61,238 nucleotides of DNA, from positions 1-61,238 of the forward strand of contig JBEAYS010000078.1 in assembly GCA_041170505.1 (NCBI GenBank), in the 5' to 3' direction. The first letter of the stretch is position 1; each line of letters begins with the position of its first letter. Position numbers and translations under genes: made by a program. The notes under the pieces were generated by a model. It made no database searches and was not told where the DNA came from. It was given only the letters and a program-made list of their open reading frames with translations. This stretch comes from Cyanobacteriota bacterium. GTDB lineage: Bacteria; Cyanobacteriota; Vampirovibrionia; LMEP-6097. This document shows positions 21,902 to 40,270 of the stretch, in pieces.

Positions 21902-22590
21902 TTTAGCTCACCTTCTAGTATTAGTTTTGCAATATAAATGGTATGAAGTTCAAAATCTTTATCAAGCACATCTAATGCCGCTAAAGTATCTGCCTCTGCT
22001 TGATGTGTATTGGTCATTTCTTTATTACAATAGAATTTATAGGCGGCAGCAAGATCGCTAGGCTGCATTTTATTAAAAATTCTCATGCCATCGATGATCT
22101 TGGTCTCATTATTAAATAGAGGCATCAAACCTGCTTGCAGAAACTCTTCAGTGAGCATTCTTATATCAAAGGTAAAAATGTTATATCCAGCAAGATCGCA
22201 ACCTAAAAAATAATCATGGATCTCTTGTGCTTTCTCTGCAAATTTTGGTTCATTAATTAGATCTTCATCTTTGATGCCATGTACAGATGTAGCTCCTTCT
22301 GCAATCGGGATACCTGGATTGAATCTTTTGGTGATAATTTCTCGTTTGCCATCAAGAGTGATCTTGATAGAGCTTAGCTCAATAATTCGATTTTTGCGGG
22401 TGTCAGTTCCGGTGCTTTCGATGTCGAAGAAGATTAGCGTATTCTTGGTATCAAGTTTTATGTTCATTCCGTAATTCATATTATAGAAGAGGTCATCATT
22501 GCCTATTGGTATCACTAGTTTGGGCTGATTTGTCAAATCAAATTGAAAAGCATATAATATCATCATGAAAAATAAGCTAAATAAGTACAA
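21898..22590 (-). CDS. DnaQ/epsilon-like DEDDh 3'-5' exonuclease (true start probably 22479 or 22467)
   Basis: Exo I FFDIESTG, Exo II GYNIFTFDIRML, Exo III HQAEADTLA. ATGA overlap with the downstream DUF2779 gene. The upstream part of the ORF overlaps the divergent XRE gene and is probably not translated. Confidence 0.85.
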   Translation of the reverse strand: MYLFSLFFMMILYAFQFDLTNQPKLVIPIGNDDLFYNMNYGMNIKLDTKNTLIFFDIESTGTDTRKNRIIELSSIKITLDGKREIITKRFNPGIPIAEGATSVHGIKDEDLINEPKFAEKAQEIHDYFLGCDLAGYNIFTFDIRMLTEEFLQAGLMPLFNNETKIIDGMRIFNKMQPSDLAAAYKFYCNKEMTNTHQAEADTLAALDVLDKDFELHTIYIAKLILEGELK

Positions 22591-22924
22591 GCTTATAGGG
22601 TCGAAGATAAGAAAAGCAAGAGAAAGAGCAGGTCTATCTAAAAATATCTTGCCGAAGAGTTGGGTTTTGAGTCTGCTACCGAGATTTCTTTAATTGAATC
22701 GGAAAGATAGAAAAGTTTCTATTAAGGACTTAGAAAAAATTTCTAATGTATTTGCAGAAGATATAAGATTTTTTCTTGGTTATGAAATAGAGAGTGATAT
22801 TGATCTGAAAAATATTTTGAGAATTGACAAAGAGTTATCAAAATTACCAAAAGGTGAAAAAGAAAAAATCATATCTTTTGTAGAGTTTATTAAAAGTGAA
22901 AATAGACAAAAGGTGAATCAATAA
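22565..22924 (+). pseudogene. XRE-family HTH regulator disrupted by two compensating frameshifts
   Basis: The frame from ATG 22565 gives MKNKLNKYKLIGSKIRKARERAGLS and then nonsense up to TAA at 22691. The HTH core KYLAEELGFESATEISLIES is readable only in a shifted frame (~22641-22703). The original frame resumes with RKVSIKDLEKISNVFAEDIRFFLG (ORF 22694-22924). Confidence 0.7.
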
Positions 22925-22933
22925 GGTACAGGT

Positions 22934-25783
22934 ATGCAAACACTGACTAATATCAAAGTAATTGCACCAGGAGCCAGAGTTGTCATTCGTGATGCTGAGT
23001 GGCTTGTAAGGCGAGTTGACACTACTAATACTGGTGGAAAGAAATATACTTGCATTGGTATCTCAGAAATTGTCAAAGATAAGGAAGCTATATTTTTAGA
23101 TGAAGTTGAAAAAGCAGAGATTGAGGTTTTAGATCCAGCTCAAACTAAATTAGTTCAGGATCAATCTCGCTCCTACCAAGCTTCCCTTCTATATATTGAG
23201 AGTTTGATGAGACAAACTGCTCCAACTGATGATGGTTTGTATATTGGTTATAAAGCTGCTATGGATTCGGTTCCATATCAGTTTGAGCCAATTATCAAAG
23301 CCCTTGATCAAGTAAGGCAAAGAATTCTTATTGCTGATGCAGTCGGACTTGGTAAGACTCTTGAAGCAGGAATTTTGGTTAGTGAACTTATAAAGCGCGG
23401 CAAAGGGAAGAGAATTTTGGTCGTAGCAGTCAAGAGCATGCTAACTCAATTCCAAAAAGAATTTTGGTCACGTTTTACTATCCCACTTACAAGGCTTGAT
23501 TCTACTGGAATCCAAAGAGTTCGAAATCAAATCCCCTCTAATCACAATCCATTTTATTACTACGACAAATCAATAATTTCTATTGATACCTTGAAGCAAG
23601 ATGCAGAATATAGAACATTTATTGAGAATGCATACTGGGACATTATTATAATTGATGAAGCGCATAATGTTGCTGATAGAGGCACAAGTTCAAAACGCAA
23701 CAAGCTTGCAGAACTTTTAGCCCATAGATCTGACACACTGCTTCTACTCTCTGCGACTCCGCATGATGGTAAAGCTAGAAGTTTTGCGAGTTTAATGAAT
23801 ATGCTTGACCCTACAGCAATAGCAAATCCTGATGAATATACTAAAGATGATATCAAGGGACTATTTATTAGGCGCTTTAAAAAAGATATTCAAGAACAAG
23901 TCAGCTCCTCTTTTAAAGAAAGAGAAATTTCAGTAGTGAAAGTCAAGGCATCTAGACTTGAAGAAGCTGCCTTTGAATCTTTTGTAAATTTAAGCTTTAA
24001 ATTAATTGACCAAAGAAGAACAAGAGGTCAACTTTTCAAAACCACACTGGAGAAAGCTTTATTCTCAAGCCCTTATGCTTGCAGTGTTACCCTTCAAAAT
24101 AGAATAAAGAAGCTAAATAGTGAAGATCCTGATCGTTATAAAGATGATATTAACCAATTAAGCAGTTTAGATAGTGATTTAGCTCATATTGGTTTTGAGA
24201 ATTACGCGAAGTATCAAAAATTACTTTCTGTTATTAAAGATAGATTTCAATGGTCAGGCAAGGCAGTTGATGACAGAATAGTAATTTTCACAGAAAGAAT
24301 AGAGACCTTGAATAAACTAAGAGATCATCTGATTAAAGATCTAGATATTCAAGATGATCAGGTGGAAATTCTGCATGGGGGTCTTTCTGATTTAGACCAA
24401 CAAGAGATAGTAGAAAACTTTGGCAAAGAAGAAGCTCCAGTTCGAATACTTCTCGCTTCTGATGTAGCATCCGAGGGTATTAATTTGCATTATCTCTGTC
24501 ATAGGATGATACATTTCGATATTCCTTGGTCGTTAATGGTCTTCCAGCAAAGAAATGGTCGTATCGACAGATACGGACAAGAAAGAACCCCAGAGATTGT
24601 TTACCTGGTAACCGAAAGCACTAACGAAAAAATCAAAGGTGATACTCGAATATTAGAAGTCTTGATAGAGAAAGATGAACAAGCTGCAAAAAATATAGAT
24701 GATCCTTCTGCATTTGCTAAAGTCTTTGATATTGAAGAGGAAGAGGCTATTACAGCTAGAGCTATTGAGACAGGAATGAATTCAGAGCAGTTCTTGGACA
24801 ATCTCAATGCGGAGCCTAGTTTACTAGATATCCTTTTAAGTGAAGCAGAGGAAAGTACGGAAAAGTATTCTGATGATAAAAGGAAACTATTACCAGTATT
24901 GTTCAATAATGATTATGACTATTTCAAGGCTGCATTAGAGTATTTAAAAAATAATGAAGATATTCAATTCAAATTCAAGCCAGAAGCCAAGCTTGTGGAG
25001 ATTAGTGCAACAGAAGATATACGCCATCGTTTTAAGTTCATGCCGAAGGAGATTTATCCAGAGAATGGTTATTTTATTCTGTCATCAGATCAGAAAGCCA
25101 TCCAAAGAGAAATAAAAAGAAGTCGCAAAGATGCAGATACATGGCCTAACGTACAGTATCTATGGGAGCAACATCCTTTGATGACATGGGTTAATGATAA
25201 GTTGCTTGCATCTTTTGGAAGGAATGAAGCTCCTATCCTAAAATTACCAAAGAAATATATGTCTCCTAACGAGACCAAGTTCATTATTACTGCGATGAAC
25301 CCTAGTCGCAAAGGACACCCTTTGATACATTTTTGGTTGATAGTAAATTTTGTTAATAATAAATTTAGCGGCATTGAATTATTTGATGAATTCCAAAAGA
25401 AATTCCAGCTAGGGCTAAAACCTATATCTAATACTGGAAATGGTTTTGATACGAAAGCCATGGAAGCACTGCTGCCATCAGCTATCAATGAAGTGACGAA
25501 ATGGATGGAAACAGAGAGAGCTGATTTTGAAAACAGAATTAATACAAAGCTTGATAAAAAATTAGCTGAACTAGAAGCACTAAAAGGGCGACAGTATGAC
25601 TATCACCAACTTAGTTTACTGCCTGACGATTCTACTTTGCAGCAAGATGATGAAAAAGCAAAACGTAAGCGTCAGATTGATCAAATATTTGATGAGTTTA
25701 TGCAATGGGTCGAAGATAGTATGACAACAGAAAAAACACCTTATATTCAAGTTGTGGCTGCATTAGTGGGAGGCAAGCACTAA
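22934..25783 (+). CDS. SNF2-family helicase (DISARM DrmD-like)
   Basis: Motif I ADAVGLGKTLEAG, motif II IIIDEAHN, motif III LLLSATPHDG, motif V LASDVASEGINLH, motif VI FQQRNGRIDRYGQ. About 370-aa C-terminal extension. Confidence 0.9.
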   Translation: MQTLTNIKVIAPGARVVIRDAEWLVRRVDTTNTGGKKYTCIGISEIVKDKEAIFLDEVEKAEIEVLDPAQTKLVQDQSRSYQASLLYIESLMRQTAPTDDGLYIGYKAAMDSVPYQFEPIIKALDQVRQRILIADAVGLGKTLEAGILVSELIKRGKGKRILVVAVKSMLTQFQKEFWSRFTIPLTRLDSTGIQRVRNQIPSNHNPFYYYDKSIISIDTLKQDAEYRTFIENAYWDIIIIDEAHNVADRGTSSKRNKLAELLAHRSDTLLLLSATPHDGKARSFASLMNMLDPTAIANPDEYTKDDIKGLFIRRFKKDIQEQVSSSFKEREISVVKVKASRLEEAAFESFVNLSFKLIDQRRTRGQLFKTTLEKALFSSPYACSVTLQNRIKKLNSEDPDRYKDDINQLSSLDSDLAHIGFENYAKYQKLLSVIKDRFQWSGKAVDDRIVIFTERIETLNKLRDHLIKDLDIQDDQVEILHGGLSDLDQQEIVENFGKEEAPVRILLASDVASEGINLHYLCHRMIHFDIPWSLMVFQQRNGRIDRYGQERTPEIVYLVTESTNEKIKGDTRILEVLIEKDEQAAKNIDDPSAFAKVFDIEEEEAITARAIETGMNSEQFLDNLNAEPSLLDILLSEAEESTEKYSDDKRKLLPVLFNNDYDYFKAALEYLKNNEDIQFKFKPEAKLVEISATEDIRHRFKFMPKEIYPENGYFILSSDQKAIQREIKRSRKDADTWPNVQYLWEQHPLMTWVNDKLLASFGRNEAPILKLPKKYMSPNETKFIITAMNPSRKGHPLIHFWLIVNFVNNKFSGIELFDEFQKKFQLGLKPISNTGNGFDTKAMEALLPSAINEVTKWMETERADFENRINTKLDKKLAELEALKGRQYDYHQLSLLPDDSTLQQDDEKAKRKRQIDQIFDEFMQWVEDSMTTEKTPYIQVVAALVGGKH

Positions 25784-28700
25784 TGGCTATTGATTTAACA
25801 GGTATAAATAACGAAAATGAATTTTATGCACATCATTATTTGACTGCGATTCTTGAAGCTGATATTAAAGATTTTATTTCGCAGTGGAAATTTGACAACA
25901 CTGAAGTTAAGCCGCCGTATGCACAATTAAAATTCTTATCTAAGACATATTTTTCTTTTCTTAGTCAGTTTGAAAAAAAGAAATCTATAGAAGATCGTAT
26001 TGAACTACAAAACGAGTGGGACAGTCAACTTCTTAATGCTTTAGGATATGAGTACCAAGCTAAACAAAAAAATATTGATGGAGTTTTAGAACTTGGATTA
26101 GCTACTGAAATTACAAAAAACAACGGAGCACCAAATCTTTGGATTATTGAGGTGTTTAATAGTTATGAAGATGAGTCAGATCCACTCTCCTTATCGCTTG
26201 AAAATTTTCAGGCAAACATAAGTGATATTAAGTCTCAGGATGAGCTTAGTTTAGACTCTGTAATCACTAAGCATATATTTAGCTTGGATGAACCTCCTCG
26301 GTGGATAATAGTTCTCAATCATTCTCAAGTGATTCTTATTGATCGTAGCAAATGGAATGAGAAAAGATTTTTGCGCTTTGATATCAAGGAGATACTAGGG
26401 CGTAAAGAAGATAGTACGCTCAAAGCGACAATAGCCCTCTTGCATAGAGAAAGTATCTCGCCTCAAGAAGGTCTTGCTCTATTGGATTCGCTTGATGAAA
26501 ACTCACACAAGCATGCTTTTTCGGTGTCGGAAGATCTTAAGTATGCACTCAGAGAGGCAATTGAATTAATTGGCAATGAAGCTATTTACTATTTACAAGA
26601 AGTAAGGCGCAAAGGAACATACACTGGAAGCGAAAAACTAGACGAGAAAGAGCTTACGCGTGAATGTTTGCGCTATATGTACAGAATACTTTTCTTGCTA
26701 TATATAGAAGCTCGTCCTGAACTGGGCTATGTGCCAATCAGATCAGATGCTTACCGTTCTGGCTATAGCCTAGAGTCCTTGCGTGACTTGGAATTAATTA
26801 AGCTTACAAGTGAAGAATCAAAAAACGGACACTATATTCACGAGTCTATAAAATTACTTTTTGCTTTGATTTATGAAGGGGTCAAATCAGAAAAAGAACT
26901 ATTGAAATCATCTGGTGGTTATAAAACATTTGAAATACCCCCGCTAAAAACACACTTGTTTGATCCAGAAAGAACCCCAATCTTAAACAAAGTAAAGTTT
27001 AGAAATCACATATTACAAAGAGTTATAAAACTAATGTCTTTATCTAAGGCTGCCAAAGGCAAAAGCAAAAGACGAGGTCGTATTTCTTATGCACAGCTTG
27101 GTATTAATCAGCTTGGTGCTGTTTATGAAGCCTTACTCTCCTATCAAGGTTTCTTTGCTCAAACAGATTTGTACGAAGTTAAAAAAGCTGATGAGAAATA
27201 TGATGAACTAAAGAATGCGTACTTTATCAAGGCTGAAGATTTAGAGAAATACAATGAAGAAGAAAAAGTTTACAACAAAGACGGCAGTCTGAAAAAATAT
27301 GAGAAGGGAAGTTTCATATATCGCTTAGCTGGGCGAGATAGAGAGAAATCAGCTTCTTACTATACTCCTGAAGTTTTGACTAAGTGTTTGGTTAAATATT
27401 CTCTCAAAGAATTATTAAAAGACAAAACCGCAGATGATATCCTCAAGCTAAAAGTCTGTGAGCCTGCGATGGGTAGTGCAGCTTTCTTGAATGAAGCTAT
27501 AAATCAATTAGCAGAAGCTTACTTAGAAAGAAAACAAAAAGAACTAGATGAGAGAATCGCTCACGATGAGTATATTCATGAATTACAAAAAGTGAAAATG
27601 TATCTTGCTGATAATAATGTTTTTGGAGTAGATCTTAATCCAGTAGCAGTTGAACTTGCAGAGGTATCATTACTTCTCAACACTATCTCAAGAGAGAACT
27701 TTATCCCTTGGTTTGGTATGCAGTTGGTCTGTGGTAATTCTTTGATAGGTGCAAGAAGACAGGTTTTTGATACTAAACTACTTAAGCGTGAGAAAAAAGA
27801 CGGTCAACTCTGGCTAGATTCTGTTCCAGAAAGAGTCATGCCTAGTAATAAGCGAGAGGCAGATACTGTTTATCATTTTTTACTTCCTGATAATGGCATG
27901 GCTGACTACAAGGATAAAGTAATTAAAGAGCTCGCAGGTGAGGAAATAAAAAAAATAAACTCATGGAGAAAAGATTTTACTAAAGAATTTAAATCTGGTG
28001 AAATAAATAGCCTCAAATCCATATCAGCAAATATAGACAAACTATGGGACGAGCATACCAAGCTTCAAGCAGAGATGCGCGAACGAACTACAGATTATTT
28101 CCGCATATGGGGACAAAAAAATGGCAAAGAACATAAGAATCTGAGCGAAACACGTTGGAAAGATAAAGTTTTAGAACAAGAACTGCATTCAAAACAAATC
28201 CGTAATTCAAGTCCTTATCGAAGACTAAAGCTAGCCATGGATTATTGGTGCAGCTTGTGGTTTTGGCCAATAGATCAAGCTGATCTATTACCATCTAGAG
28301 CTGAGTATCTAATGGAGCTTGAGACTATTCTAGGAGGATCTCCCGTTGAAGTCTCTGCTGGACAAGATGAACAACTTGGTCTTTTTTCTGAGACCATGAG
28401 TGATGAGAATAAAGAGAAACTCAAAGGTTTAGGCTATGCTGATGTTAATAAGCTGTGTACAGAAGTACCAAGATTTAAGCTTGTAAAAGAACTTGCCGAG
28501 AAACATAGATTCTTGCATTGGGAGCTGGAGTTTGCAGATATTTTTAATAGTAATGGTGGCTTTGATTTATTACTTGGTAATCCGCCTTGGATTAGCATAA
28601 GTTGGAAAGAAAGCCACATTCTAAGCCAATATGATCCAGTAATTCAACTGAGAAATATGAAAAATATTAGTAACAGAGAGGAATTGTTATCGCTAATTGA

Positions 28701-30447
28701 GCGTAAAGTAAATTATCTCAATGAGTATGTTGAAAGTACATCATCTAGGAATTTTTTAACTAGCACCTCTTACTATCCTATTTTAAAGGGTACATTGAAT
28801 AATTTATATAAAAATTTTCTTGTTATGTGTACCTCTATTGTTAATTCTGCCGGGAAAGCAGGCTTAATAACTGATAAAAGTCTATATGAAGATCCGACAT
28901 GTAATTTGTTACGTAAAGAGATCTTTCCTAGACTTATTTACTATTTTAATTTTCAAAATCAGCTTAACTTATTTGCTGAAGAGGCTATTGGACACGCGGG
29001 CTTCTTTTGTATGAGTATCTTTTCATCTGAGAAAAAAGAGAAGGTTAATTTCGATGCAATCTTTAATCTTTTTAGTCCCAAGACCATAGATTCATCATAT
29101 GAGCATACATCATTAAGTAGCGTACCTACATTAAAAAGAATGAAAACCAAGGAGTGGAATTTAGATGGTCATAGTCAAAGACTAATAAAAATTGATAATG
29201 ATTATTTAAAATTAATGGCAGCAATTTTTGGTGAGAATCAAGATGCTGACTCCCCTTGTTTGATTTCTGTTTATAGTAATGAAATTTATAAGATTTTGGA
29301 GAAATTAGTGCTATATCCAAACCATTTCAGAGATTTTAGTTCTGAGTTTATGCATACCTCAATGTTTAATGAAACTAATGCCGAGAGAAAATTATATACC
29401 AAGAAGACGATTGATTTTGTAGAGGAGCTCCACCATTTTGTTTTTTCAGGACCTCATTTCTATGTTTCTACTCCATGGTATAAACAGCCAAGGAGATTTT
29501 GTAAAAGCAAAGGAGACTATGAAACAATAGATTTAACGAGATTACAAAAAGATCAGATACCTAGAACTTTTTATCAATTAAATGACTCTGGTATCTCTAA
29601 AATTGAAAGTTTTAAGAATCGTAAAGTTACTGACTACTATAGATTAGTTCGCAGGTCTATGGCTGGTGTTTCTAATGAAAGGACTTTAATAACAGCGATA
29701 ATACCACCTGGACCAGCGCACATCCATGGTGTCACATCTATAGTTGCAGACAATGAACTACTTTTACAAATGGCAGGAGTCTCCCACTCAATTGTGTCTG
29801 ATTTCTTGATAAGGTCTTTTGGTAAGACCAATATATCTTCTGATATAGTTGATACTCTTCCAATGTTTAAGAAAAGAAATAAGTGGCTGAACTTTAGAAC
29901 TTTACGATTAAATTGTTTGAGTTTATTTTATTCAAACTTGTGGCAGGATTGCTATGACTGTGACATTGTGTCTGATTCATTTACTAAGTTAGATAATAGA
30001 CTAAAAGACTGGTCTGGATTGACAGGTACTTATTCTGATAATGTGCCGCTTAGAACGTTTTTTGAAAGAAGGCAAGCCTTGATTGAAATTGACGTATTAG
30101 TATCATTGGATTTGGGGATTACATTAAATGAGTTAATTACATTATATAGAACACAGTTTAGTGTTTTATATGAAAATGAAAATGATACTTGGTACGACCA
30201 ACAAGGACAGATTGTATTCAGTTGCAACAAGGGGCTATCTGGGGTAGGCTTTACCCGCCCAGAATGGGAGAAAATAAAAGACATGAAAGAGGGTACTGTC
30301 TCTAGAACTATAGTTGATGACACTTTACCGGGAGGTCCTGTCAAAAGAACTATAGAATACCATGCTCCTTTTGATCGCTGTGACAGAGAGAGAGACTATG
30401 AGATAGCTTGGAAAGAATTTGAGAGGAGGTTTCAAGAAACTAAATGA
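25783..30447 (+). CDS. Large (1554 aa) N6-adenine DNA methyltransferase, Eco57I/PglX/DrmMI-like
   Basis: SAM-binding motif I VCEPAMGSAAFLNEA (~27457) and catalytic motif IV LLGNPPWISISW (NPPW at 28579-28590). The start overlaps the SNF2 stop by 1 nt (TAATG). Confidence 0.88.
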   Translation: MAIDLTGINNENEFYAHHYLTAILEADIKDFISQWKFDNTEVKPPYAQLKFLSKTYFSFLSQFEKKKSIEDRIELQNEWDSQLLNALGYEYQAKQKNIDGVLELGLATEITKNNGAPNLWIIEVFNSYEDESDPLSLSLENFQANISDIKSQDELSLDSVITKHIFSLDEPPRWIIVLNHSQVILIDRSKWNEKRFLRFDIKEILGRKEDSTLKATIALLHRESISPQEGLALLDSLDENSHKHAFSVSEDLKYALREAIELIGNEAIYYLQEVRRKGTYTGSEKLDEKELTRECLRYMYRILFLLYIEARPELGYVPIRSDAYRSGYSLESLRDLELIKLTSEESKNGHYIHESIKLLFALIYEGVKSEKELLKSSGGYKTFEIPPLKTHLFDPERTPILNKVKFRNHILQRVIKLMSLSKAAKGKSKRRGRISYAQLGINQLGAVYEALLSYQGFFAQTDLYEVKKADEKYDELKNAYFIKAEDLEKYNEEEKVYNKDGSLKKYEKGSFIYRLAGRDREKSASYYTPEVLTKCLVKYSLKELLKDKTADDILKLKVCEPAMGSAAFLNEAINQLAEAYLERKQKELDERIAHDEYIHELQKVKMYLADNNVFGVDLNPVAVELAEVSLLLNTISRENFIPWFGMQLVCGNSLIGARRQVFDTKLLKREKKDGQLWLDSVPERVMPSNKREADTVYHFLLPDNGMADYKDKVIKELAGEEIKKINSWRKDFTKEFKSGEINSLKSISANIDKLWDEHTKLQAEMRERTTDYFRIWGQKNGKEHKNLSETRWKDKVLEQELHSKQIRNSSPYRRLKLAMDYWCSLWFWPIDQADLLPSRAEYLMELETILGGSPVEVSAGQDEQLGLFSETMSDENKEKLKGLGYADVNKLCTEVPRFKLVKELAEKHRFLHWELEFADIFNSNGGFDLLLGNPPWISISWKESHILSQYDPVIQLRNMKNISNREELLSLIERKVNYLNEYVESTSSRNFLTSTSYYPILKGTLNNLYKNFLVMCTSIVNSAGKAGLITDKSLYEDPTCNLLRKEIFPRLIYYFNFQNQLNLFAEEAIGHAGFFCMSIFSSEKKEKVNFDAIFNLFSPKTIDSSYEHTSLSSVPTLKRMKTKEWNLDGHSQRLIKIDNDYLKLMAAIFGENQDADSPCLISVYSNEIYKILEKLVLYPNHFRDFSSEFMHTSMFNETNAERKLYTKKTIDFVEELHHFVFSGPHFYVSTPWYKQPRRFCKSKGDYETIDLTRLQKDQIPRTFYQLNDSGISKIESFKNRKVTDYYRLVRRSMAGVSNERTLITAIIPPGPAHIHGVTSIVADNELLLQMAGVSHSIVSDFLIRSFGKTNISSDIVDTLPMFKKRNKWLNFRTLRLNCLSLFYSNLWQDCYDCDIVSDSFTKLDNRLKDWSGLTGTYSDNVPLRTFFERRQALIEIDVLVSLDLGITLNELITLYRTQFSVLYENENDTWYDQQGQIVFSCNKGLSGVGFTRPEWEKIKDMKEGTVSRTIVDDTLPGGPVKRTIEYHAPFDRCDRERDYEIAWKEFERRFQETK

Positions 30448-33400
30448 TACCTTCGGTAATATCTAAGCAGCTCAAGCAAGGAGTGGATGATTTCCTGCGC
30501 ACTACTTTCCCTATTTCGACTAATGCTTTTTCTGGAGTTGTTGACGACATGCTCAATGAAGAGGGAAAGCTTTTCAAAGGTCCTTACGTCTCTATTAATT
30601 TGCCCTTTAAAAACCCAGAACCAGAAGGTGATTATAAAAATTTCTTTGCTGATATCCCTATGAAATATCAGCCTTATCAACACCAACTTAAGTCATTCAA
30701 GAGACTAACAGCTAATAAATCAACAATTATTGCAACAGGTACTGGTTCTGGTAAAACAGAATGTTTTTTGTATCCAGTGTTAGATTATTGTTACAAAAAA
30801 AGAAACGATAAAGGTATTAAGGCAATAATTATTTATCCAATGAATGCGCTTGCTACTGATCAAGCTAAGCGTATTGCTAAAGCTATCTACGGCAACAAAA
30901 AGCTACACGGTAATGTAACAGCTGGCTTATTCATAGGACAACAGGAAAATGACCCTAAAGATTCTATGACAAGAGAGCATGTGATTACCAATAAAGACAC
31001 ACTTAGAGAAAATCCTCCTGATATTTTGTTGACCAACTATAAAATGCTTGATTACTTGATGGTTAGAGTGAAAGACAGGGAGCTTTGGCAGCACAACAAT
31101 CCTGAAACTTTAAAATATCTAATCGTTGATGAGTTGCATACTTTTGATGGGGCACAAGGTACTGATCTCTCTTGTTTGATTAGACGTCTGAAAAATAGAC
31201 TAGAAGTCCCTGCTAATCATTTATGCTGTGTCGGTACTTCTGCAACTATAGGTAGTGAAGAAGAGATCAATAATCTACTTAGTTACATTAAAGATGTCTT
31301 TAGTGATAACTTTGATAAAGAATCTATTGTTACTGAAGATAGGGAAAGTTCTAAAGAGTTTTTAAGCGAAGATATTGTAGAATATAATGCAGTTCCAGAG
31401 CCATCTCAGGCATTCAAACTAAAGCCTGAACAATACGACAGCCCTGAGGAATTTTTACTAGCTCAATATAGATTATGGTTTGAAACAGACTTGGATATAA
31501 ACTCAGAAGAGGATAGGCTTAAGCTTGGTAAACAGCTCAAGAAACATAGGTTCTTTCAGAATTTATTGACTATTCTAGATGGACGTACTATTAGTTTACA
31601 CAACATTATTGATGAGTTTAAGCAGATAGCAGTATTCCAGAGTGATGAAGATAGAGAGTATTGTATCGATCTGATTAATAGTATGTGTGCCCTCGTCTCC
31701 CATGCTAGATCAAGTGTTGAAGGTGAGATACTTCCGTTTCTCAATGTGCGTTACCAACTTTGGATGCGTGAGTTAAGAAGAATCGTTGCAGAAACCAGCC
31801 ATTATCCAAAACTTGCATTTTCAGATGACTTAAAGGAAGACCAAGAAAATAAATTTCTTCCTATCGTGCATTGCCGCGAATGTGGCTCGACAGGATGGGG
31901 TGGAGTGAGAACGGAAGACAATACTATTAATGACAATTTGAGAGATTTTTACCATGTATTTTTTAAGAAACAACCTTGGCTTACTTTCTTGTTCCCAATA
32001 AACTCAGATGATAAAGATGATTCTAATAAAACTTCTCGATTATGCGGCAAATGTCTAACTGTAACTAATCAAACGAAAGAATGTCCTTCTTGTCATAATA
32101 AAGAACTTCTAGAAGTTTTTATTCCAGACAATACCACAAGAAATAAAGATGACAAAGTCATAACCAACAATAACTGTCCTTATTGCGGTAGCTATGGTGG
32201 GCTAACCATTATGGGTTCAAGAGCCGCAAGCTTAATTAGCGTGATGGTTGGTCAACTTTTTGCATCGCGTTATGGAGATATAAATCAAAAATTAGTTTCT
32301 TTTGCTGATTCTGTGCAAGATGTTTCTCTCTATGCTGGATTCCTTGGAGCTAGAACTTACTCGATTAATTTTAGATCAGCCTTACAGCAGCTTGTTGATG
32401 AACAGGGACAAGGTAAAACACTTTCTGAATTGCCAGAGTTGTTCGTTCAACATTGGGCTCAGAAGTTAGGTCTGGAAAAATATATCTCATACTTTATAGC
32501 CCATAATATGGAATGGTTTTCTGAATATGACTATATGAAAAAGAAAGGTCAATTACCGGCTGATTCTGATCTCAAAGAGTTAGTTGATAAAAGAATAAGT
32601 TGGGAAATCTTTAGTGAATATGGCTATAGATCCCGCATTGGAAGAACCTTAGAGAAGAGCAGTGTCTCAACGGTATTTCCTAAAACTGAATTGGTAGAGA
32701 CTGCAGCAAAAGAGCTTGCTGAAATAGTCCAGAACGAAATCGGTGCTTTTAGAGATACTACTATAGATCAGTATTTAAAATTTATCTACGGATTAATTAT
32801 GCACCTCAAAACTAAGGGAGGTGTTTCACATCCTGCTTTGGATGAATATATAAATGAAAATGGTAATTCATATCTTCTGAATCGTCAGAGTTTCATGCCT
32901 AGCTTTTGGGATCGTGCTCCAGTGTTCCTGACCAGTCGCAAAAGGGGCAAGAGTAGATTTGAAACTATATTGAGTAACCAAGGTAGACAAGCTACTTGGT
33001 ATGAGAAATGGTTGTTTAAATTATTTGGTACAGATCTAAATTTTGTTAAAAGTTATGCCGAGGATTTTTATAAAATTGCTCTATCCAAGCTAGAAGAAAA
33101 TGGACTCCTAGATAAATATGCTATTAACAATGAACAATTCACCTGGGGTCTTAAACCTGATAACTTAGAACTCACGTTAAAGGTTGCTCAGTTGCGTTGT
33201 GACAAATGTAGCCATTCAGTATCTACTGCTGATGAAGAATTAAAGAGTTGGGTATCTATGCCATGTATGAGACCAAGTTGTAATGGCAAATATCAAGAAG
33301 ATAAAGTCAGAGACGACTATTACGGCAAACTTTATTCAAGTGCAAATATATATAGAATCCATGCTGAAGAACATACCAGTCTCTTGGGTAGGGATGAACG

Positions 33401-36400
33401 TGAAACTGTTGAGAAGAGTTTTATTAATAATGAAAATCCATGGGATCCTAATTTACTCTCTGCCACACCTACATTAGAGATGGGGATAAATATAGGTGAT
33501 TTGTCATCAGTGTTCTTGTGCTCTGTACCTCCAGCTCAATCTAATTATATCCAAAGAATTGGTAGAGCTGGAAGAACAGATGGTAATGCTTTTACTTTTA
33601 CCATGGCGGAGGGAGTATCTCATGACTTGTACTTTTTTGCTGAGCCTGAGGAAATGATTAATGGACAAGTTAATCCACCAGGCGTTTACTTGAATGCTTC
33701 TGCAATATTGGAAAGACAGTTTGTAGCTTTTTGTTTTGATAAGTGGGTATCAACAGGAATCAATGAAAAAGCCATACCTGAGAAACTGGGACCAGTATTG
33801 AATAACGTTGAAGCTGCTAAGTCTGCAAGCTTTCCATATACTTTTTTGAGATTTACACAAAAACAAAAAGATACACTGTTGCAAGAATTCTTTGAATTGT
33901 TTCAGGATGTATTAGATGATGATTCTCGCAAGCATATACAAATATATGTTGAAGGTGATAAGCAGCATGAAGGTAGCTTTGAGCATAAGCTCATCAATTC
34001 ACTAGAGTTTGTCTCTAAGGAAAGAGATACTTATAAGAAAAAGGCTGCTAAATTAAGACTTGCAATTAACAAGAAAGAAGATGACCCTGCTCAAAGAGAC
34101 AAGAATTTTGAGGATGACTTAGATGAATTAATAAACCAAAGAAAAGGACTAGAGAAATTAATTAGAGGAATAAACGATAAGGATATTCTCAATTTCTTTA
34201 CTGATGAAGGTTTCTTGCCAAATTATGCTTTCCCTGAAGCTGGTGTAATACTCAAATCTCTAATTTTTAGACGCAAACAAAAAAATCGTGCTTCGGACGA
34301 AGAGCCAAATTCTAATTATGATACTTGGACCTATGAATATGAAAGACCGGCTATGAGTGCGATACAAGAACTTGCACCAGCTAACACTTTCTATGCAAAT
34401 GGACGTAAGGTTGAAATAGATCAAGTAGATCTTAGTTTGACAGAACCTCAGATGTGGAGATTCTGTGATGAGTGTTCTTATAGTGAAGCGGCTGAAACTA
34501 ATACCGCCAGTAGTAGCTGCCCTAAATGCGGTAGCGTAATGTGGGGTGATATTGGTCAGCAGAGAAAAATGCTGAAACTTAGACAAGTATATGCAAGCTC
34601 CTCTGATAAGAAAAGTCGTATAGGTGATGATGCAGAGGAAAGAACGCCAGTCTTCTACAACAAGCAGATGTTGGTTGATTTTACTGAAGACAATATACAA
34701 GATGCTTTTAGAGTTACTGACGAATCGTTCCCTTTTGGTTTTGAGTTTATTAAAAAAGCTATTTTTAGAGAGATAAACTTTGGTGAAAGAACTCTCGATG
34801 GTGACTCATTTAAAGTAGCAGGAGTTGAATCTACCAGAAACGGATTCAAACTGTGTAAGCATTGTGGGAAAATACAAAAGGAAAAACCTCTGGGTGATAT
34901 TAAATCTGATGATATTAAACGATTACATGATATAAATTGTCCACTAAGAGGGAAAGAAATTAATTCTGCTGACTTTATCGACTGTGTTTATTTATACAGA
35001 GAGTTTCATTCTGAAGCAATTAGGATGCTTTTACCAATATTGCAAGAATTAGAGTCACCACAAAAGCTTCATTCGTTTATTGCAGCTCTACAACTGGGTC
35101 TCAAAAGTAAATTTGGTGGTGCTGTTGATCATTTGCAAATAACTACTTACAACGAACCTGATGAGGATTCTGATCAACGCAAACAGTTTCTGATGCTTTA
35201 TGACAGGATTCCTGGCGGGACTGGCTATTTGAAACAATTGATGCGAAATGAGAAACCACTTTTTGAGGTTTTTGAATTAGCATTAGATAAATTGAAAAGA
35301 TGTACTTGTGCTAATGATCCAGATAAAGACGGATGCTATCGCTGTATTTATGCATATCGTAATAGCTATGATATGCCTCTAACTTCTAGAGAAACTGCTA
35401 TCAAGCTTCTAACTGAAGCTCTAGATCATAAGGATAAGCTAAGTAAAATTGAGTCTCTTCGCAAAGTTAGCCTAAATGCTTTATCTGGTAGTGTCTTAGA
35501 GAGTAATTTTATTGACGCGTTCAGGAAATATAAAAAGGAGGGCACGCCAATCCAAGTATCTCAAGAAATTGTCAATAAAAAGCCAGGCTATTTTATAAAA
35601 ATAGGAGAGCGTGGTTATTACGTGGAGCCGCAAGTGAGCCTCAATGACTCTTCTCGCGTTTCAGTACCATCTAAAGCTGATTTTGTTTTTTACCCAGCAG
35701 AGTCACGATCGCCACAAAAACCAATAGTAGTTTTCACTGATGGCTTTAAATATCATAAAGATAGACTTGGCTACGATACTGCACAGAGAATGGCTTTGGT
35801 TCAAAGTGGAAAGTTTTGGACTTGGTCTATAACTTGGAAAGATGTGCAGTCCATTCTGGATAATTTTGATAAAAAATATTTTATTGACTTGTTCAACTGT
35901 GGTGTGACGCAAAATGAAGCTAAGCTTGGTAAGTTTTTGGCAAGCTTTGGAATAGATCAGTTTAAATCACTGGCAAAAAATACTAGTAATTTTGACCTAT
36001 TAGTTAGTTTCCTTGCTGAACCAGATGAAGATTCTTGGGCTAAGCATGCTTTTGTTAGATCATTAATGTGGCTTGACTTGAAGGCAACTGATCATAAAGC
36101 TTTTGATAAGGAGGTTTTGAAGCATTTACCTTCTGAGATGAAGGGTATTTATGATGAGTTGTCGGAAGACAAATTTATTGGTCAGTATGATCATCAAAAA
36201 AATAACAGTAACGTCATTCAGGTTTTTGTTTCGGTTCCAAAAAATGACTTGAAGGAAAACAAATACAACAATGCTTTTGCTATGTGTGCACTGCTTGATG
36301 GAAAGCAAGGAAATGACTTTGAAAGTGATTGGGTTAGCTTTTTGAGAGTGTATAATTTTATGCAATTTTTGCCAATGTCTTTTTGTTTCACCTCTAGCGG

Positions 36401-36785
36401 TATAGAAGCTCTTGAATATGAGAAATTACACTTGGATAGAATTTTAAGAAGAAACGATAGTAAAGCAGAGATAGCGACCGAGGAGTGGGCAGAAGTGCTA
36501 GAGCTATCTGATGAAAGTTTCTCTGGTTTAATCAGCAAATTGCGAATCCAGTTGAACATGGTGCCAGAAGTTGGATTCGAGCTGCAAAATACAGATGATG
36601 AGATTATTGCAGAAGCCGAGCTGGCTTGGAAAGACGGTCGAATCGCTATTTTGGCTAGTTTTCAGGCTGATTATAAAATTATTTTCAGCAATTATGGGTG
36701 GAAAGTTTATATGATTGAAGAGGCTCTGGACAATATGTCTGAACTTATCTCTTCAATAGAGAAAAAGGAAATGAATAGATTATGA
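30444..36785 (+). CDS. Giant (2113 aa) DExH helicase, Zn-ribbon insertion, DUF1998/MZB-like region and C-terminal restriction-endonuclease-like region (DrmA+DrmB fusion-like / DruE-like)
   Basis: Walker A ATGTGSGKT (30738), DELH (31128-31139), GTSAT, QRIGRAGR (33552-33575). CxxC pairs: CRECGS, CGKC..CPSCHN, CPYCGS, CDEC..CPKCGS, CKHCGK, CTCAN..DGCYRC. C-terminal ADFVFYP..VVFTDGFKYHKD and EAELAWKDGRIAIL. ATGA overlaps with both neighbours. Confidence 0.85.
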   Translation: MIPSVISKQLKQGVDDFLRTTFPISTNAFSGVVDDMLNEEGKLFKGPYVSINLPFKNPEPEGDYKNFFADIPMKYQPYQHQLKSFKRLTANKSTIIATGTGSGKTECFLYPVLDYCYKKRNDKGIKAIIIYPMNALATDQAKRIAKAIYGNKKLHGNVTAGLFIGQQENDPKDSMTREHVITNKDTLRENPPDILLTNYKMLDYLMVRVKDRELWQHNNPETLKYLIVDELHTFDGAQGTDLSCLIRRLKNRLEVPANHLCCVGTSATIGSEEEINNLLSYIKDVFSDNFDKESIVTEDRESSKEFLSEDIVEYNAVPEPSQAFKLKPEQYDSPEEFLLAQYRLWFETDLDINSEEDRLKLGKQLKKHRFFQNLLTILDGRTISLHNIIDEFKQIAVFQSDEDREYCIDLINSMCALVSHARSSVEGEILPFLNVRYQLWMRELRRIVAETSHYPKLAFSDDLKEDQENKFLPIVHCRECGSTGWGGVRTEDNTINDNLRDFYHVFFKKQPWLTFLFPINSDDKDDSNKTSRLCGKCLTVTNQTKECPSCHNKELLEVFIPDNTTRNKDDKVITNNNCPYCGSYGGLTIMGSRAASLISVMVGQLFASRYGDINQKLVSFADSVQDVSLYAGFLGARTYSINFRSALQQLVDEQGQGKTLSELPELFVQHWAQKLGLEKYISYFIAHNMEWFSEYDYMKKKGQLPADSDLKELVDKRISWEIFSEYGYRSRIGRTLEKSSVSTVFPKTELVETAAKELAEIVQNEIGAFRDTTIDQYLKFIYGLIMHLKTKGGVSHPALDEYINENGNSYLLNRQSFMPSFWDRAPVFLTSRKRGKSRFETILSNQGRQATWYEKWLFKLFGTDLNFVKSYAEDFYKIALSKLEENGLLDKYAINNEQFTWGLKPDNLELTLKVAQLRCDKCSHSVSTADEELKSWVSMPCMRPSCNGKYQEDKVRDDYYGKLYSSANIYRIHAEEHTSLLGRDERETVEKSFINNENPWDPNLLSATPTLEMGINIGDLSSVFLCSVPPAQSNYIQRIGRAGRTDGNAFTFTMAEGVSHDLYFFAEPEEMINGQVNPPGVYLNASAILERQFVAFCFDKWVSTGINEKAIPEKLGPVLNNVEAAKSASFPYTFLRFTQKQKDTLLQEFFELFQDVLDDDSRKHIQIYVEGDKQHEGSFEHKLINSLEFVSKERDTYKKKAAKLRLAINKKEDDPAQRDKNFEDDLDELINQRKGLEKLIRGINDKDILNFFTDEGFLPNYAFPEAGVILKSLIFRRKQKNRASDEEPNSNYDTWTYEYERPAMSAIQELAPANTFYANGRKVEIDQVDLSLTEPQMWRFCDECSYSEAAETNTASSSCPKCGSVMWGDIGQQRKMLKLRQVYASSSDKKSRIGDDAEERTPVFYNKQMLVDFTEDNIQDAFRVTDESFPFGFEFIKKAIFREINFGERTLDGDSFKVAGVESTRNGFKLCKHCGKIQKEKPLGDIKSDDIKRLHDINCPLRGKEINSADFIDCVYLYREFHSEAIRMLLPILQELESPQKLHSFIAALQLGLKSKFGGAVDHLQITTYNEPDEDSDQRKQFLMLYDRIPGGTGYLKQLMRNEKPLFEVFELALDKLKRCTCANDPDKDGCYRCIYAYRNSYDMPLTSRETAIKLLTEALDHKDKLSKIESLRKVSLNALSGSVLESNFIDAFRKYKKEGTPIQVSQEIVNKKPGYFIKIGERGYYVEPQVSLNDSSRVSVPSKADFVFYPAESRSPQKPIVVFTDGFKYHKDRLGYDTAQRMALVQSGKFWTWSITWKDVQSILDNFDKKYFIDLFNCGVTQNEAKLGKFLASFGIDQFKSLAKNTSNFDLLVSFLAEPDEDSWAKHAFVRSLMWLDLKATDHKAFDKEVLKHLPSEMKGIYDELSEDKFIGQYDHQKNNSNVIQVFVSVPKNDLKENKYNNAFAMCALLDGKQGNDFESDWVSFLRVYNFMQFLPMSFCFTSSGIEALEYEKLHLDRILRRNDSKAEIATEEWAEVLELSDESFSGLISKLRIQLNMVPEVGFELQNTDDEIIAEAELAWKDGRIAILASFQADYKIIFSNYGWKVYMIEEALDNMSELISSIEKKEMNRL

Positions 36786-38896
36786 GTATACCTGCAGTAA
36801 AAGTTGCTATCTCAGCTGATTTTTTATCAGCTTTTTCAAAGATACCTAAACCACAACAATCAAAGGTCATGAAATTTGTTGAGGAATTTAAAGAGAATCC
36901 TCAATCATCAGCGATCAATTATGAAAAAATACACAACGTTAAAGATAGTAAATTTCGTTCTGTTCGTATTGATCAGGCCTATAGGGGGATAATTGTAAAG
37001 CCCGATGAAGGTAATGTTTATGTTTTACTTTGGGTTGATCACCATGATGAAGCTTATGCGTGGGCTGAAAAAAGAACTTGCAAAATTAACCCAGAGACAG
37101 GAAGTTTGCAGATATATTCAGTTGACGAGCAAGATCTAGTCATTAAAAAAGATAAGCAAGAAAAGGTTGAAGGCTTATTTGATGAAATTCGAACCAAGCA
37201 ATTACTGAGACTTGGAGTTCCAGAGGAATTAGTTGATTTAGTTAGAAGTATTAGTACTGATGTTGAATTAGAAAAATTAGAAAGTAAATTGCCTCAAGAA
37301 GCTTTTGAAGCCTTGTATATGCTTGCAGCAGGATTTAGTTTACAGGACGTATTTAACGAGCTTGATAAAAAGGATGAAGATGTTGTTGTTGATCTTAATG
37401 ACTATGTCAAAGCTATCGATCAAGTGGATTCTAAGAGAAGGTTCTATGTTATTGAAAACGAATTGGAGATGGAAGCTATTTTGAATGCTCCACTAGAAAA
37501 GTGGAGGGTATTTTTACATCCGTCTCAAAGACGGCTGGTTGATAAAGATTGGAATGGTCCAGTGCGAGTACTTGGAGGTGCAGGTACTGGCAAGACAGTG
37601 GTTGCAATGCATAGAGCCAAATGGCTTGCTAGTAAAGGAGAAAGGATTCTTTTCACTACGTTTACAAAAAATCTTGCAAAAGACATCGAAAGTAATCTTG
37701 GTAAGATTTGCTCTCCAGAATTAATGAAGAAAATAGAAGTCGTAAATATTGATCAGTGGGTATCTGATTTCCTCAAGAAAAATGGTTACGATTATAAAAT
37801 TGTCTATGATAAAGAGACAGAGAAATATTGGCAGGGCGTGCTTACTTTAGCTAATACTCAAAACAATTTATCGGAAGAATTCTATAGAGAAGAGTGGGAA
37901 AAAGTTATTCAAGCTCAGGGGATTAGAAGTTTGAATGAGTATCTAAAGGCTTCTAGGGTTGGAAGAGGTATACAGCTTAACAGAAAACTGCGCAAAGAAG
38001 TTTGGTCTGTTTTTGAAGAATATATTAGACGTTTAAAAGAGAATCATCTCAAGGAACGTGAGGATGCAATTCGAGACTGTCGTCATATTTTGGAACAAAA
38101 TCCAAATGCTATCTCATATTTTTCGGTTATCGTTGATGAAGCTCAAGACATGGGAATGGAGGCTTTTAAACTTATTAGAACAATCATTCCTGAAGAAAGA
38201 GTAAACGATATTTTTATTGTTGGTGATGCTCATCAGAAAATATATTCAAATAAAGTTGTTCTTAGCCAATGTGGGATTAACATACGAGGTAGAAGTAGGA
38301 AACTTAGAATAAACTATCGCACAACTGAAGAGATTAGAAAATGGTCAGTCGCTATTTTGGAGGGTGTTAAAGTAGATGATCTTGATGGGTCTGAAGACGA
38401 TCAAAAAGGTTACCGCTCCTTGCTCCACGGTTCTGAGCCAATTGTAAAAGAGTTTAAAAGTTTTGAAGAAGAGGTTGCTTTTATAAGTGCTTTTCTGAAT
38501 TCGGCAGAAGTGAATACTGATGAAAAATTAAAGTCAACTTGCTTGGTTGTTCGGACCAATAATTTGGTAGATAAATACAAAGAAGCCTTAGAGAAAGAAG
38601 GTGTTTCTTCATATAAAATTAGCAGAAGTTCTGCAGAAGATAGGAAACGTCCTGGTGTGAGGATTGCAACAATGCATCGTGTGAAAGGACTTGAATTTGA
38701 TAACGTTATAATTGCTGGACTTGATGATGGCAGTGCACTGTTGCTTAAGAAGGCAAATAAATCTGAGGATTCTGTCATAAAAAGAGAATATGAGCAGATA
38801 GAGCGCAGCCTAATTCATGTATCTGCCACTAGAGCAAAAAGACAACTGTTTATAACCTCGCCAAGAAAATTATCGCCACTTTTAAGTAAAAACTGA
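36782..38896 (+). CDS. SF1 UvrD/Rep-like helicase with N-terminal RelE/ParE-like small domain
   Basis: Walker A VLGGAGTGKTVVAMHRA (~37574), Walker B VIVDEAQD, C-terminal IATMHRVKGLEFDNVII. The N-terminal ~100 aa (QAYRGIIVKPDEGNVYVLLWVDHHDEAYAWA) resembles toxin-fold domains. Confidence 0.85.
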   Translation: MSIPAVKVAISADFLSAFSKIPKPQQSKVMKFVEEFKENPQSSAINYEKIHNVKDSKFRSVRIDQAYRGIIVKPDEGNVYVLLWVDHHDEAYAWAEKRTCKINPETGSLQIYSVDEQDLVIKKDKQEKVEGLFDEIRTKQLLRLGVPEELVDLVRSISTDVELEKLESKLPQEAFEALYMLAAGFSLQDVFNELDKKDEDVVVDLNDYVKAIDQVDSKRRFYVIENELEMEAILNAPLEKWRVFLHPSQRRLVDKDWNGPVRVLGGAGTGKTVVAMHRAKWLASKGERILFTTFTKNLAKDIESNLGKICSPELMKKIEVVNIDQWVSDFLKKNGYDYKIVYDKETEKYWQGVLTLANTQNNLSEEFYREEWEKVIQAQGIRSLNEYLKASRVGRGIQLNRKLRKEVWSVFEEYIRRLKENHLKEREDAIRDCRHILEQNPNAISYFSVIVDEAQDMGMEAFKLIRTIIPEERVNDIFIVGDAHQKIYSNKVVLSQCGINIRGRSRKLRINYRTTEEIRKWSVAILEGVKVDDLDGSEDDQKGYRSLLHGSEPIVKEFKSFEEEVAFISAFLNSAEVNTDEKLKSTCLVVRTNNLVDKYKEALEKEGVSSYKISRSSAEDRKRPGVRIATMHRVKGLEFDNVIIAGLDDGSALLLKKANKSEDSVIKREYEQIERSLIHVSATRAKRQLFITSPRKLSPLLSKN

Positions 38897-39112
38897 TTGG
38901 GCTCACGTATAACAAAGAGCTTGATCTTATTGCTCTAAGAAGCTAACCTTATAACGGAGCTAGAAATGGCTCTGGGTTTTAATCGCCCTGTCACAAGCCG
39001 TCTCAGAGATACGTTTTTGCATGTCCAGAGCTTTCGGGCTTAAAGATTGCAGTAGTCATCCTTGTGACCGATTGATAAACTCCTGGTTACTTTTTATTCA
39101 AATTAAGTAACT

Positions 39113-39187: not shown

Positions 39188-39487
39188 TTATAACCTTTCG
39201 GTATAAAAATCTACTTTGATATTTTCAATGAATAATCTTTTATGCTTGTCATTTAAAGCATTAAATAAATCATCCTCGTGAGCCGTTCCAGTGTATTTGA
39301 TTTTTACATCCAAGTCAGAATTCTTTCTAGGCTGTCCAAAAATTCTACTACCAAAAAGCTGGATACCTTGGATATCAAAATCTAAGCCTTCAAAATGCAA
39401 CTCATTATTTAACTGTTTAATATGTGAATGAATTATGCTAAGTATTTCCATTTCAGTATAATCTGGCAATCCTAAAACGGTAAGCAT
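39188..39487 (-). CDS. Minimal Pol-beta-fold nucleotidyltransferase (MNT-like)
   Basis: 99-aa ORF with the GS-x10-DLDV pattern (LFGSRIFGQPRKNSDLDVKI), characteristic of minimal nucleotidyltransferases. Confidence 0.6.
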   Translation of the reverse strand: MLTVLGLPDYTEMEILSIIHSHIKQLNNELHFEGLDFDIQGIQLFGSRIFGQPRKNSDLDVKIKYTGTAHEDDLFNALNDKHKRLFIENIKVDFYTERL

Positions 39488-39524
39488 AGAAACTATTTTA
39501 GTCTATTGTAGGCATCTAAAACCC

Positions 39525-40127: not shown

Positions 40128-40135
40128 AATAATTA

Positions 40136-40187
40136 TTAAGGATACACTGAAAAATTCGACTTCGTCGATTTTGCAACGAATCCTTAA
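40136..40187 (+). mobile_element. Family-1 MITE, internally deleted 52-bp relic
   Basis: ttaaggatacactgaaaaattcgacttcgtcgattttgcaa-cgaatccttaa keeps both ends but lacks the central hairpin. A further isolated end, cagtggatccttaa, lies at 40360-40373 in inverted orientation. Confidence 0.7.
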
Positions 40188-40192
40188 AGCAC

Positions 40193-40225: not shown

Positions 40226-40270
40226 GTGAGCCTTTATGAGGGTTTCTGGCGGTTTTACTAGGGTTTTGAG

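Follow-up and report, generated by a model that had tools for sequence, protein, structure and literature searches.

The window analysed here is a stretch of 61,238 nucleotides (nt), contig JBEAYS010000078.1 of assembly GCA_041170505.1, from an uncultured bacterium labelled as Cyanobacteriota. Between positions 22,934 and 38,896 it carries four long open reading frames (ORFs) which, judged from their sequences, very probably constitute an intact ARMADA type II (armABCD) anti-phage operon within a defence island. The four genes are:

22934..25783, plus strand: armA (ORF1), RapA/BrxHII-like SNF2 helicase of 949 amino acids (aa), from Pfam, NCBIfam and the alignment with Escherichia coli ArmA
25783..30447, plus strand: armB (ORF2), PglX/DrmMI-like N6-adenine DNA methyltransferase of 1554 aa, from Pfam, PADLOC and the alignment with E. 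coli ArmB
30444..36785, plus strand: armC (ORF3), YprA-like DExH helicase fused to OB-CON-DUF1998 and a C-terminal nuclease-like region, 2113 aa
36782..38896, plus strand: armD (ORF4), GajB-like UvrD/superfamily 1 (SF1) helicase of 704 aa, from Pfam, PADLOC and the alignment with E. coli ArmD

All four ORFs are co-directional and free of internal stop codons, so that uninterrupted reading frames span 15,963 nt. Consecutive ORFs overlap at their start and stop codons by 1, 4 and 4 nt, and the junctions read CTAATGG, AAATGATA and TTATGAGT. Both the span of the operon and the junction sequences agree with an earlier note on this DNA, which had described four co-directional ORFs with these overlaps. 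Every motif that the note had listed for the four proteins was recovered at a sensible position. ORF1 contains GLGKT at residue 138, DEAHN at 241, SATP at 273 and QQRNGRIDRYGQ at 538. In ORF2, EPAMGSAAF starts at 560 and NPPW at 933, and ORF3 shows GTGSGKT at 99, DELH at 229, QRIGRAGR at 1037 and DGCYRC at 1629. The motifs of ORF4 are GGAGTGKT at 265, VDEAQD at 451 and MHRVKGLEFD at 631. Pfam profiles, which the note had proposed as a check, confirmed the SNF2, N6-methyltransferase, DEAD/DUF1998 and UvrD domains.

ARMADA type II was defined by Bell et al. (2025) as a system with the strict order ArmA-ArmB-ArmC-ArmD (PMC12458937). In that definition, the SNF2 helicase ArmA is of the BrxHII/RapA-like type and the methyltransferase ArmB is PglX-like; ArmC joins a YprA-like helicase to OB-CON-DUF1998 and, at its C-terminus, to a Vsr-type nuclease, and ArmD pairs a GajB-like helicase with a RelE-like N-terminus (PMC12458937). 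With the ARMADA operon of E. coli NCTC 12900, cells resisted 13 of 80 phages and did not die (PMC12458937). Each single-gene deletion of armABCD abolished defence in E. coli (PMC12458937, PMC13463889), and the orthologous system acts broadly, without killing or arresting the cell (PMC12458937, PMC13463889). An independent study of enterohaemorrhagic E. coli EDL933 (z5899-z5902, mBio 2026) arrived at the same conclusions, and DefenseFinder labels the EDL933 system ARMADA II (PMC13463889).

For a direct comparison we used the locus of E. coli SMS-3-5, which was reached through a weak blastn match. Its genes are arranged as druH-druE-armA-armB-armC-armD, and its ArmA, WP_001041505.1, serves as the ArmA reference in Table S2 of PMC12458937. 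The order armA-armB-armC-armD in the window matches both SMS-3-5 and the published type II definition. Pairwise alignments gave full-length identities of 51% for ArmA, 43% for ArmB, 37% for ArmC and 48% for ArmD. The proteins measure 949, 1554, 2113 and 704 aa in the window and 952, 1640, 2113 and 704 aa in E. coli; ArmC and ArmD thus have the same lengths in both organisms, whereas ArmB of the window is 86 aa shorter and, after ArmC, the second most diverged of the four. ArmC aligned with E. coli ArmC at 1467 bits.

The residues that have been mutated in E. coli are conserved throughout. Defence was abolished by the exchanges K136A and D236N in ArmA, K110A and D234N in ArmC, K266A in ArmD and N971A in ArmB, and was partially lost with D454N in ArmD and G605A in ArmB (PMC12458937). 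All eight positions are retained in identical motifs: ArmA K141 and D241 align with E. coli K136 and D236, ArmB G564 and N933 with G605 and N971, ArmC K104 and D229 with K110 and D234, and ArmD K271 and D452 with K266 and D454. The ATPase, S-adenosylmethionine (SAM)-binding and NPPW residues are therefore alike in both systems. The RelE-like N-terminus of ArmD is common to both as well, and a tentative further likeness is the putative Vsr-like motif that follows DUF1998 in ArmC. Gene order and the start-stop overlaps at the B/C and C/D junctions are also the same in ARMADA type II of E. coli NCTC 12900, EDL933 and ATCC 8739. The two settings differ in their host, an uncultured Cyanobacteriota metagenome-assembled genome of ~36% GC content in contrast to an enterobacterium. 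Druantia III and Zorya II, the partners of E. coli ARMADA II, do not adjoin the operon in the window, and armA is directly preceded there by a decayed XRE-type gene, unlike in E. coli.

We conclude that the operon is a new, diverged instance of an already named and experimentally validated system, and that the system type itself is not new. The earlier note had seen a hybrid or variant methylation-linked anti-phage system whose effector differs from that of canonical DISARM. This view held in substance, but what it described corresponds to the published ARMADA type II; the implied novelty is not supported, because the exact four-gene architecture is already catalogued (PMC12458937, PMC13463889).

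The individual proteins were then characterized by profile searches and structure prediction. The ATPase core of ArmA covers approximately aa 119-566 (nt 23288-24631), with Walker A K141 and Walker B D241, and matched the Pfam families SNF2-rel_dom (2.3e-17) and Helicase_C (9.6e-17) as well as NCBIfam RapA (1.4e-45). The ArmA C-terminus alone gave nothing meaningful in Pfam. In ArmB, the catalytic region lies at approximately aa 505-955 (nt 27295-28647) and includes the SAM motif PAMG(564)S and the catalytic N(933)PPW; Pfam recognized Eco57I (2e-13) and N6_Mtase (1.5e-5). ArmC comprises a RecA1 domain (nt 30678-31256) with Walker A K104 and Walker B D229, a Helicase_C domain (nt 33354-33578), an MZB/DUF1998 domain (nt 35082-35348) and nine CxxC motifs. 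The corresponding Pfam E-values were 1.8e-24 for DEAD, 6.3e-10 for Helicase_C and 1e-11 for MZB/DUF1998 (aa 1547-1635), which bears out the claim of the earlier note that the giant helicase carries DUF1998. ArmD has its helicase core at approximately aa 245-695 (nt 37514-38866), with Walker A K271 and Walker B D452, and matched UvrD-helicase (7.8e-26) and UvrD_C (1.2e-22) in Pfam and GajB in PADLOC (7.8e-33).

Three further domains were delineated in ArmC and ArmD. Two nuclease-type modules, the putative Vsr-type domain of ArmC and the RelE-like N-terminus of ArmD, had been left out of the earlier note:

35493..35861, plus strand: predicted Vsr-type PD-(D/E)xK-like domain of ArmC, a putative effector nuclease, ~aa 1684-1806 (motif level)
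36441..36752, plus strand: last domain of ArmC, ~aa 2000-2103, with the motif 'PEvGYEL...AEAELAW', resembling the ZorE C-terminus
36800..37120, plus strand: RelE-like N-terminal domain of ArmD, aa 7-113, from AlphaFold2 (AF2) and Foldseek

The N-terminus of ArmD alone yielded nothing meaningful in Pfam. An AF2 model of aa 1-235, built with 28 homologues, reached a pLDDT (predicted local distance difference test) score of 87.7. Foldseek against the PDB returned RelE/YoeB/YafQ/HigB/ParE-type toxins for 46 of the 50 top matches, the other four being three Cami1 chains and Txp40. The best match was the RelE structure 2khe (E=6e-4, template modelling score 0.76), and 3bpq_D was also found (E=1.1e-3); 3BPQ_D is likewise the published HHpred match for the N-terminus of E. 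coli ArmD (PMC12458937). The predicted structure thus confirmed a RelE-like fold. Residues R62, R68, H88, D89, Y92 and W94 vary little or not at all across phyla, and the Joint Genome Institute (JGI) product name on ArmD homologues is 'mRNA-degrading endonuclease RelE'.

For the region of ArmC that follows DUF1998, an alignment of 42 sequences revealed the invariant residues S1683, E1686, D1746, D1766, G1767, H1771 and D1778. The Pfam family REase_MTES_1575 weakly matched seven of the 42 members, and the AF2 model of aa 1660-2113 (454 aa) showed an alpha/beta structure with a pLDDT of 84.9. HHpred on E. coli ArmC has been reported to find Vsr at 5.2e-5 (PMC12458937, Table S2). The last domain of ArmC matched PADLOC ZorE2 at 6.5e-16 (aa 2001-2103 on positions 273-371 of the 375-position model) and NCBIfam ZorE at 2.7e-8, and its consensus lacks the DG..H motif. 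A degenerate second Vsr-like domain has been described for type II ArmC (PMC12458937), and the last domain probably represents its counterpart here. A comparison of the first with the last C-terminal domain by hhalign detected neither similarity nor an internal duplication.

Several points weigh against the assignment to ARMADA type II as drawn here. Neither PADLOC-DB 2023 nor NCBIfam 2026 contains an ARMADA model; DrmD, REase_MTase_IIG, DruE and GajB are the best names that these libraries offer for the four proteins, of which not one reaches an NCBIfam cut-off. With respect to the nuclease, hhalign placed ArmC 1738-1771 on E. coli Vsr 43-69 weakly, with P=5e-4, a probability of 31% and 27 aligned columns; at this probability it paired ArmC D1746, TDG1765-1767 and H1771 with Vsr D51, T63-H64-G65 and H69. 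The 454-aa C-terminal model had no significant Foldseek match in the PDB, the weak entries (E > 0.5) being the restriction-fold/EEP-like TnsA, R.BspD6I, PaqCI and DNase I. Pfam and profile searches against the PDB sequences also lacked a credible match for the ArmC C-terminus; three domain alignments were used for the latter, and none of them gave one. Because both the Foldseek and the profile searches against the PDB were negative, we grade the Vsr-type nuclease assignment as motif-supported but not independently proven. Finally, the literature searched contains no published molecular mechanism for E. coli ARMADA, and the steps proposed below are inferred from DISARM, BREX and Druantia.

Seen through the older libraries alone, the locus looks like a chimera of DISARM, Druantia and Gabija. 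DISARM class 1 consists of DrmD, DrmMI, DrmA, DrmB and DrmC. It shares with the window the SNF2 helicase, the N6-adenine methyltransferase and the pairing of a YprA-family helicase with DUF1998. The four genes could accordingly be read as a DISARM class 1 variant in which DrmD and DrmMI are joined by a fused DrmA-DrmB, DrmC has been lost and a UvrD helicase gained. Indeed, DrmD is the best PADLOC match of ArmA (9.3e-106, compared with 6.4e-65 for BrxHII), and DrmMI ranks second among the distinct families matching ArmB (3.8e-58). ARMADA has itself been described as related to DISARM, with two components in common (PMC12458937, PMC13463889). The NCBIfam model DISARM_DrmD (NF038317), however, scored 373.6 bits against a cut-off of 610, and the better of its two matching stretches covers only aa 10-402 of ArmA. 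Equally, the DrmA models of PADLOC matched ArmC only weakly (4.8e-18), compared with about 1e-114 for the DruE models. In DISARM the helicase and DUF1998 reside in separate proteins, whereas the window has no separate drmA and drmB genes. As the earlier note had recognized, a single 2113-aa protein of DruE size combines the functions of DrmA and DrmB, with a UvrD-type helicase translationally coupled at the 3' end. The note had also reported no phospholipase D (PLD) nuclease, and rightly so: HxKxxxxD (H.K.{4}D) does not occur in any ORF of at least 80 aa in the six frames of 19000-45100, and neither Pfam nor PADLOC assigned a PLD family to any of the 22 proteins scanned (the four operon proteins and their neighbours). 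Instead of the DISARM PLD nuclease, the window has a predicted Vsr-type domain fused to the helicase, and an additional UvrD/RelE protein. In the published YprA phylogeny, ARMADA helicases group with Druantia and not with DISARM (PMC12458937), and the four-gene set is a conserved, separately named family. A DISARM variant is thus very improbable.

A second reading is a Druantia variant, namely a DruE-centred system with new accessory genes. ArmC has the size of DruE, contains DUF1998 and matched PADLOC DruE1 (4.7e-114) and DruE3 (7.3e-104). With Druantia type III (DruH-DruE), the window shares a giant YprA-like helicase, DUF1998 and zinc-binding inserts. The DruE matches, however, break up into two to five separate stretches per model, and E. 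coli DruE from the same SMS-3-5 island aligned with ArmC at only 119 + 84 bits, far below the score of E. coli ArmC; the similarity extends over no more than the helicase core and DUF1998. Druantia III lacks the methyltransferase, SNF2 and UvrD partners, its DruE has tandem PLD domains, which are absent from ArmC, and its partner is DruH. No homologue of DruH, DruA-D or DruM/F/G was present among the flanking ORFs scanned. We regard this variant as highly implausible, and judge the same of a stand-alone type IIG restriction-modification enzyme (ORF2) situated beside unrelated helicase genes. The latter would account for the end-to-end match of ORF2 to PADLOC REase_MTase_IIG (PDLC03614, 3.4e-284) and for its Eco57I-type and MmeI-type methylase regions in Pfam. 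Outside the methyltransferase region (aa 1-500 and aa 1000-1554), however, Pfam detects no nuclease; moreover, the start and stop codons of neighbouring genes overlap, and the four genes stay together across phyla and were each required for defence in the E. coli deletion experiments cited above. Likewise, there is little to commend a decaying, non-functional ARMADA II relic in a degraded island. Pseudogenes do surround the operon (a truncated Mrr, YhcG fragments and the frameshifted XRE-type gene upstream of armA), but its own frames are open over their full 15,963 nt, and all tested catalytic residues and family-invariant columns are kept. Gabija and BREX resemble single components only: GajB the ArmD helicase core, BrxHII ArmA and, weakly, PglX ArmB. 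GajA, PglZ, BrxC and BrxL are missing, and GajB lacks the RelE-like domain found in ArmD. ARMADA type I, compared by description only, has three core proteins in common with the window, namely a BrxHII-like helicase, a PglX-like methyltransferase and a YprA-like helicase, to which a Vsr-type nuclease is joined in type I. In type I, the helicase gene usually comes first and ArmD is absent, whereas the window has ArmD and the order A-B-C-D.

The gene-order survey proposed in the earlier note was carried out on 80 related loci, one genome per species, the best match having 47% identity. They span Proteobacteria, Firmicutes, Cyanobacteria, Bacteroidota, Acidobacteria, Planctomycetes, Verrucomicrobia, Thermotogae and others. 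ArmD directly follows ArmC in 56 of 62 informative loci, and in 41 of 47 ArmB lies upstream of ArmC and shares its orientation. Nineteen of these 41 loci have A-B-C contiguous as in the window, with ArmA directly before ArmB; the position of ArmA was scored only in these 19 and not in the 22 loci with an insert. In the latter (22 of the 47 informative loci), 0.76-9.2 kb are inserted exactly between armB and armC. They comprise L008, L017-L019, L022, L025, L027, L028, L033, L038 and L044, and further L049, L051, L058, L063, L064, L066, L067, L071 and L076-L078. In the window and in E. coli, unlike in the insert loci, stop and start codons overlap at this junction.

Among the inserted genes, a complete Gabija system was identified in L025 (Lacrimispora), with GajA at 4.8e-90 and GajB at 1.8e-42. 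Other cargo consisted of PsyrA (4e-131, L027), GmrSD/HEC-06 (L028), Schlafen-AlbA_2 ATPases (L019, L027, L057), a ResIII helicase (L018), an SMC/AAA_21 ATPase (L038), a protein kinase (L049) and Hsp70 (L022). In its main text, the ARMADA paper describes a 'strict gene order', and inserts between armB and armC are not mentioned there (PMC12458937).

How the four proteins might cooperate can be sketched by analogy with related systems. ArmB would serve as the sequence-specificity subunit, which N6-methylates host adenines and, like PglX in BREX, would also recognize unmarked DNA. Among the E. coli islands, armB is the most variable gene (PMC13463889), as expected for such a subunit, and loss of ArmB abolishes defence and has not been reported as lethal. 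ArmA, as a RapA/BrxHII-like SNF2 translocase, would be the partner of ArmB on duplex DNA, as in BREX and DISARM. ArmC would act as a YprA/MrfA-type 3'-to-5' helicase that loads, beneath its OB-CON-DUF1998 canopy, on phage DNA that is single-stranded or bears overhangs, and would cut the invader DNA with the predicted C-terminal Vsr-type nuclease, which would take the place of the DISARM PLD nuclease DrmC. MrfA, DrmAB and DruE, the last of them characterized recently, are the templates for this helicase-nuclease model. Purified E. coli DruE binds single-stranded DNA and is a 3'-to-5' DNA helicase, and Druantia III is reported to recognize single-stranded DNA that is exposed, so as to clear phage. 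These properties provide the best available mechanistic model for ArmC. ArmD, whose GajB-like SF1 helicase is joined to a RelE-fold domain, would assist in processing DNA ends or in sensing interference.

One can also imagine a two-armed ARMADA II, in which ArmABC would restrict unmethylated phage DNA and the conserved RelE fold of ArmD, which keeps R62, R68, H88 and Y92 across phyla, could come into play once the DNA arm is blocked, either as a second arm with ribosome-dependent mRNA cleavage or as an anti-anti-defence trigger. Separately, other defence systems may dock preferentially at the junction between armB and armC, which would make the operon a scaffold for nested immunity. We consider this combined proposal rather unlikely.

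Since the experimentally important residues are all conserved, the four-protein design of ARMADA II has been maintained across phyla. The diverged copy in the window helps to choose invariant positions, such as D1746 and H1771 in ArmC and R62, R68 and Y92 in ArmD. Earlier publications already cover the type of system, the way it relates to DISARM and Druantia and its action against phages, and the locus opens no new question.

The flanks of the operon contain candidate regulatory signals and a gene remnant:

22530..22558, plus strand: candidate sigma-70-like promoter upstream of armA, TTGTCA-17-TATAAT, 11/12 matches (tentative)
22565-22927, plus strand: decayed XRE-type helix-turn-helix gene of ~120 codons, directly upstream of armA
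38955..38974, plus strand: terminator-like hairpin 59 nt past the armD stop codon, with an 8-bp stem containing 4 GC pairs, followed by GGTTTTAATC (tentative)

The promoter and terminator assignments stay tentative because promoter-like sites are no more frequent in the region than shuffled sequences would lead one to expect. Two frameshifts and one in-frame stop break the frame of the XRE-type gene, whose end lies 8 nt ahead of the armA ATG. A homologue was recognizable in only one of the 80 related loci (L036). Thus, it is not a conserved ARMADA component.

The operon resides in an island at ~19000-45100 with 35-36% GC, flanked by housekeeping genes at 40-43% GC. No integrase was found among the island ORFs scanned and no tRNA gene in the island, and the only Rfam hit was a tRNA-Gly at 1873-1945. 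A direct-repeat search gave no convincing att-like repeats bounding the low-GC region. Outside the island, a 435-aa ORF (8968-10275, plus strand) without a Pfam or PADLOC match lies in a local GC dip of 34-36%. The remaining island genes and elements are:

19277-19774, plus strand: truncated Mrr, 165 aa, matching only positions 180-315 of the 317-position PADLOC model mREase_IV
19895-21901, minus strand: DUF2779 protein, 668 aa, with a Cas4/RecB-like nuclease domain at aa 385-534
21898-22590, minus strand: DEDDh (RNase T-like) exonuclease, 230 aa
39188-39487, minus strand: Pol-beta/MNT-like nucleotidyltransferase
39525-40127, minus strand: T5orf172/PDC-S57 gene
40370-40651, 40724-41332 and 41998-42477, minus strand: broken YhcG/DUF1016 copies with 192-nt and 43-nt internal repeats
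42541-43695, minus strand: SoFic (PADLOC 7e-113)
43975-45015, minus strand: intact YhcG/PDC-S02
41313-41354, 42484-42525, 43903-43944 and 45028-45069: conserved element of ~40 nt, coding strand GCGCAAAAATCCCTTCCCnAGTGCGTTTCGGCGGTAGAAT, ending in the -10-like TAGAAT

The truncated Mrr corresponds to the C-terminal catalytic half of the type IV enzyme and is a remnant at the left island edge. The DUF2779 and DEDDh genes overlap by 4 nt and are transcribed divergently from armA. Homologues of the DUF2779 protein with ~50% identity are widespread, and PADLOC has no model for it. In the three loci checked, these homologues lie in defence islands with WYL regulators, BREX PglZ/BrxL and type I restriction-modification neighbours, and the DEDDh exonuclease partner is not kept.

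The downstream part of the island, 39188-45015 on the minus strand, is a row of small defence-type genes. The ~40-nt element, for which Rfam has no match, occurs just upstream of four consecutive minus-strand genes, namely two YhcG fragments, SoFic and the intact YhcG, and resembles a promoter or operator common to these genes, or else a cassette boundary.

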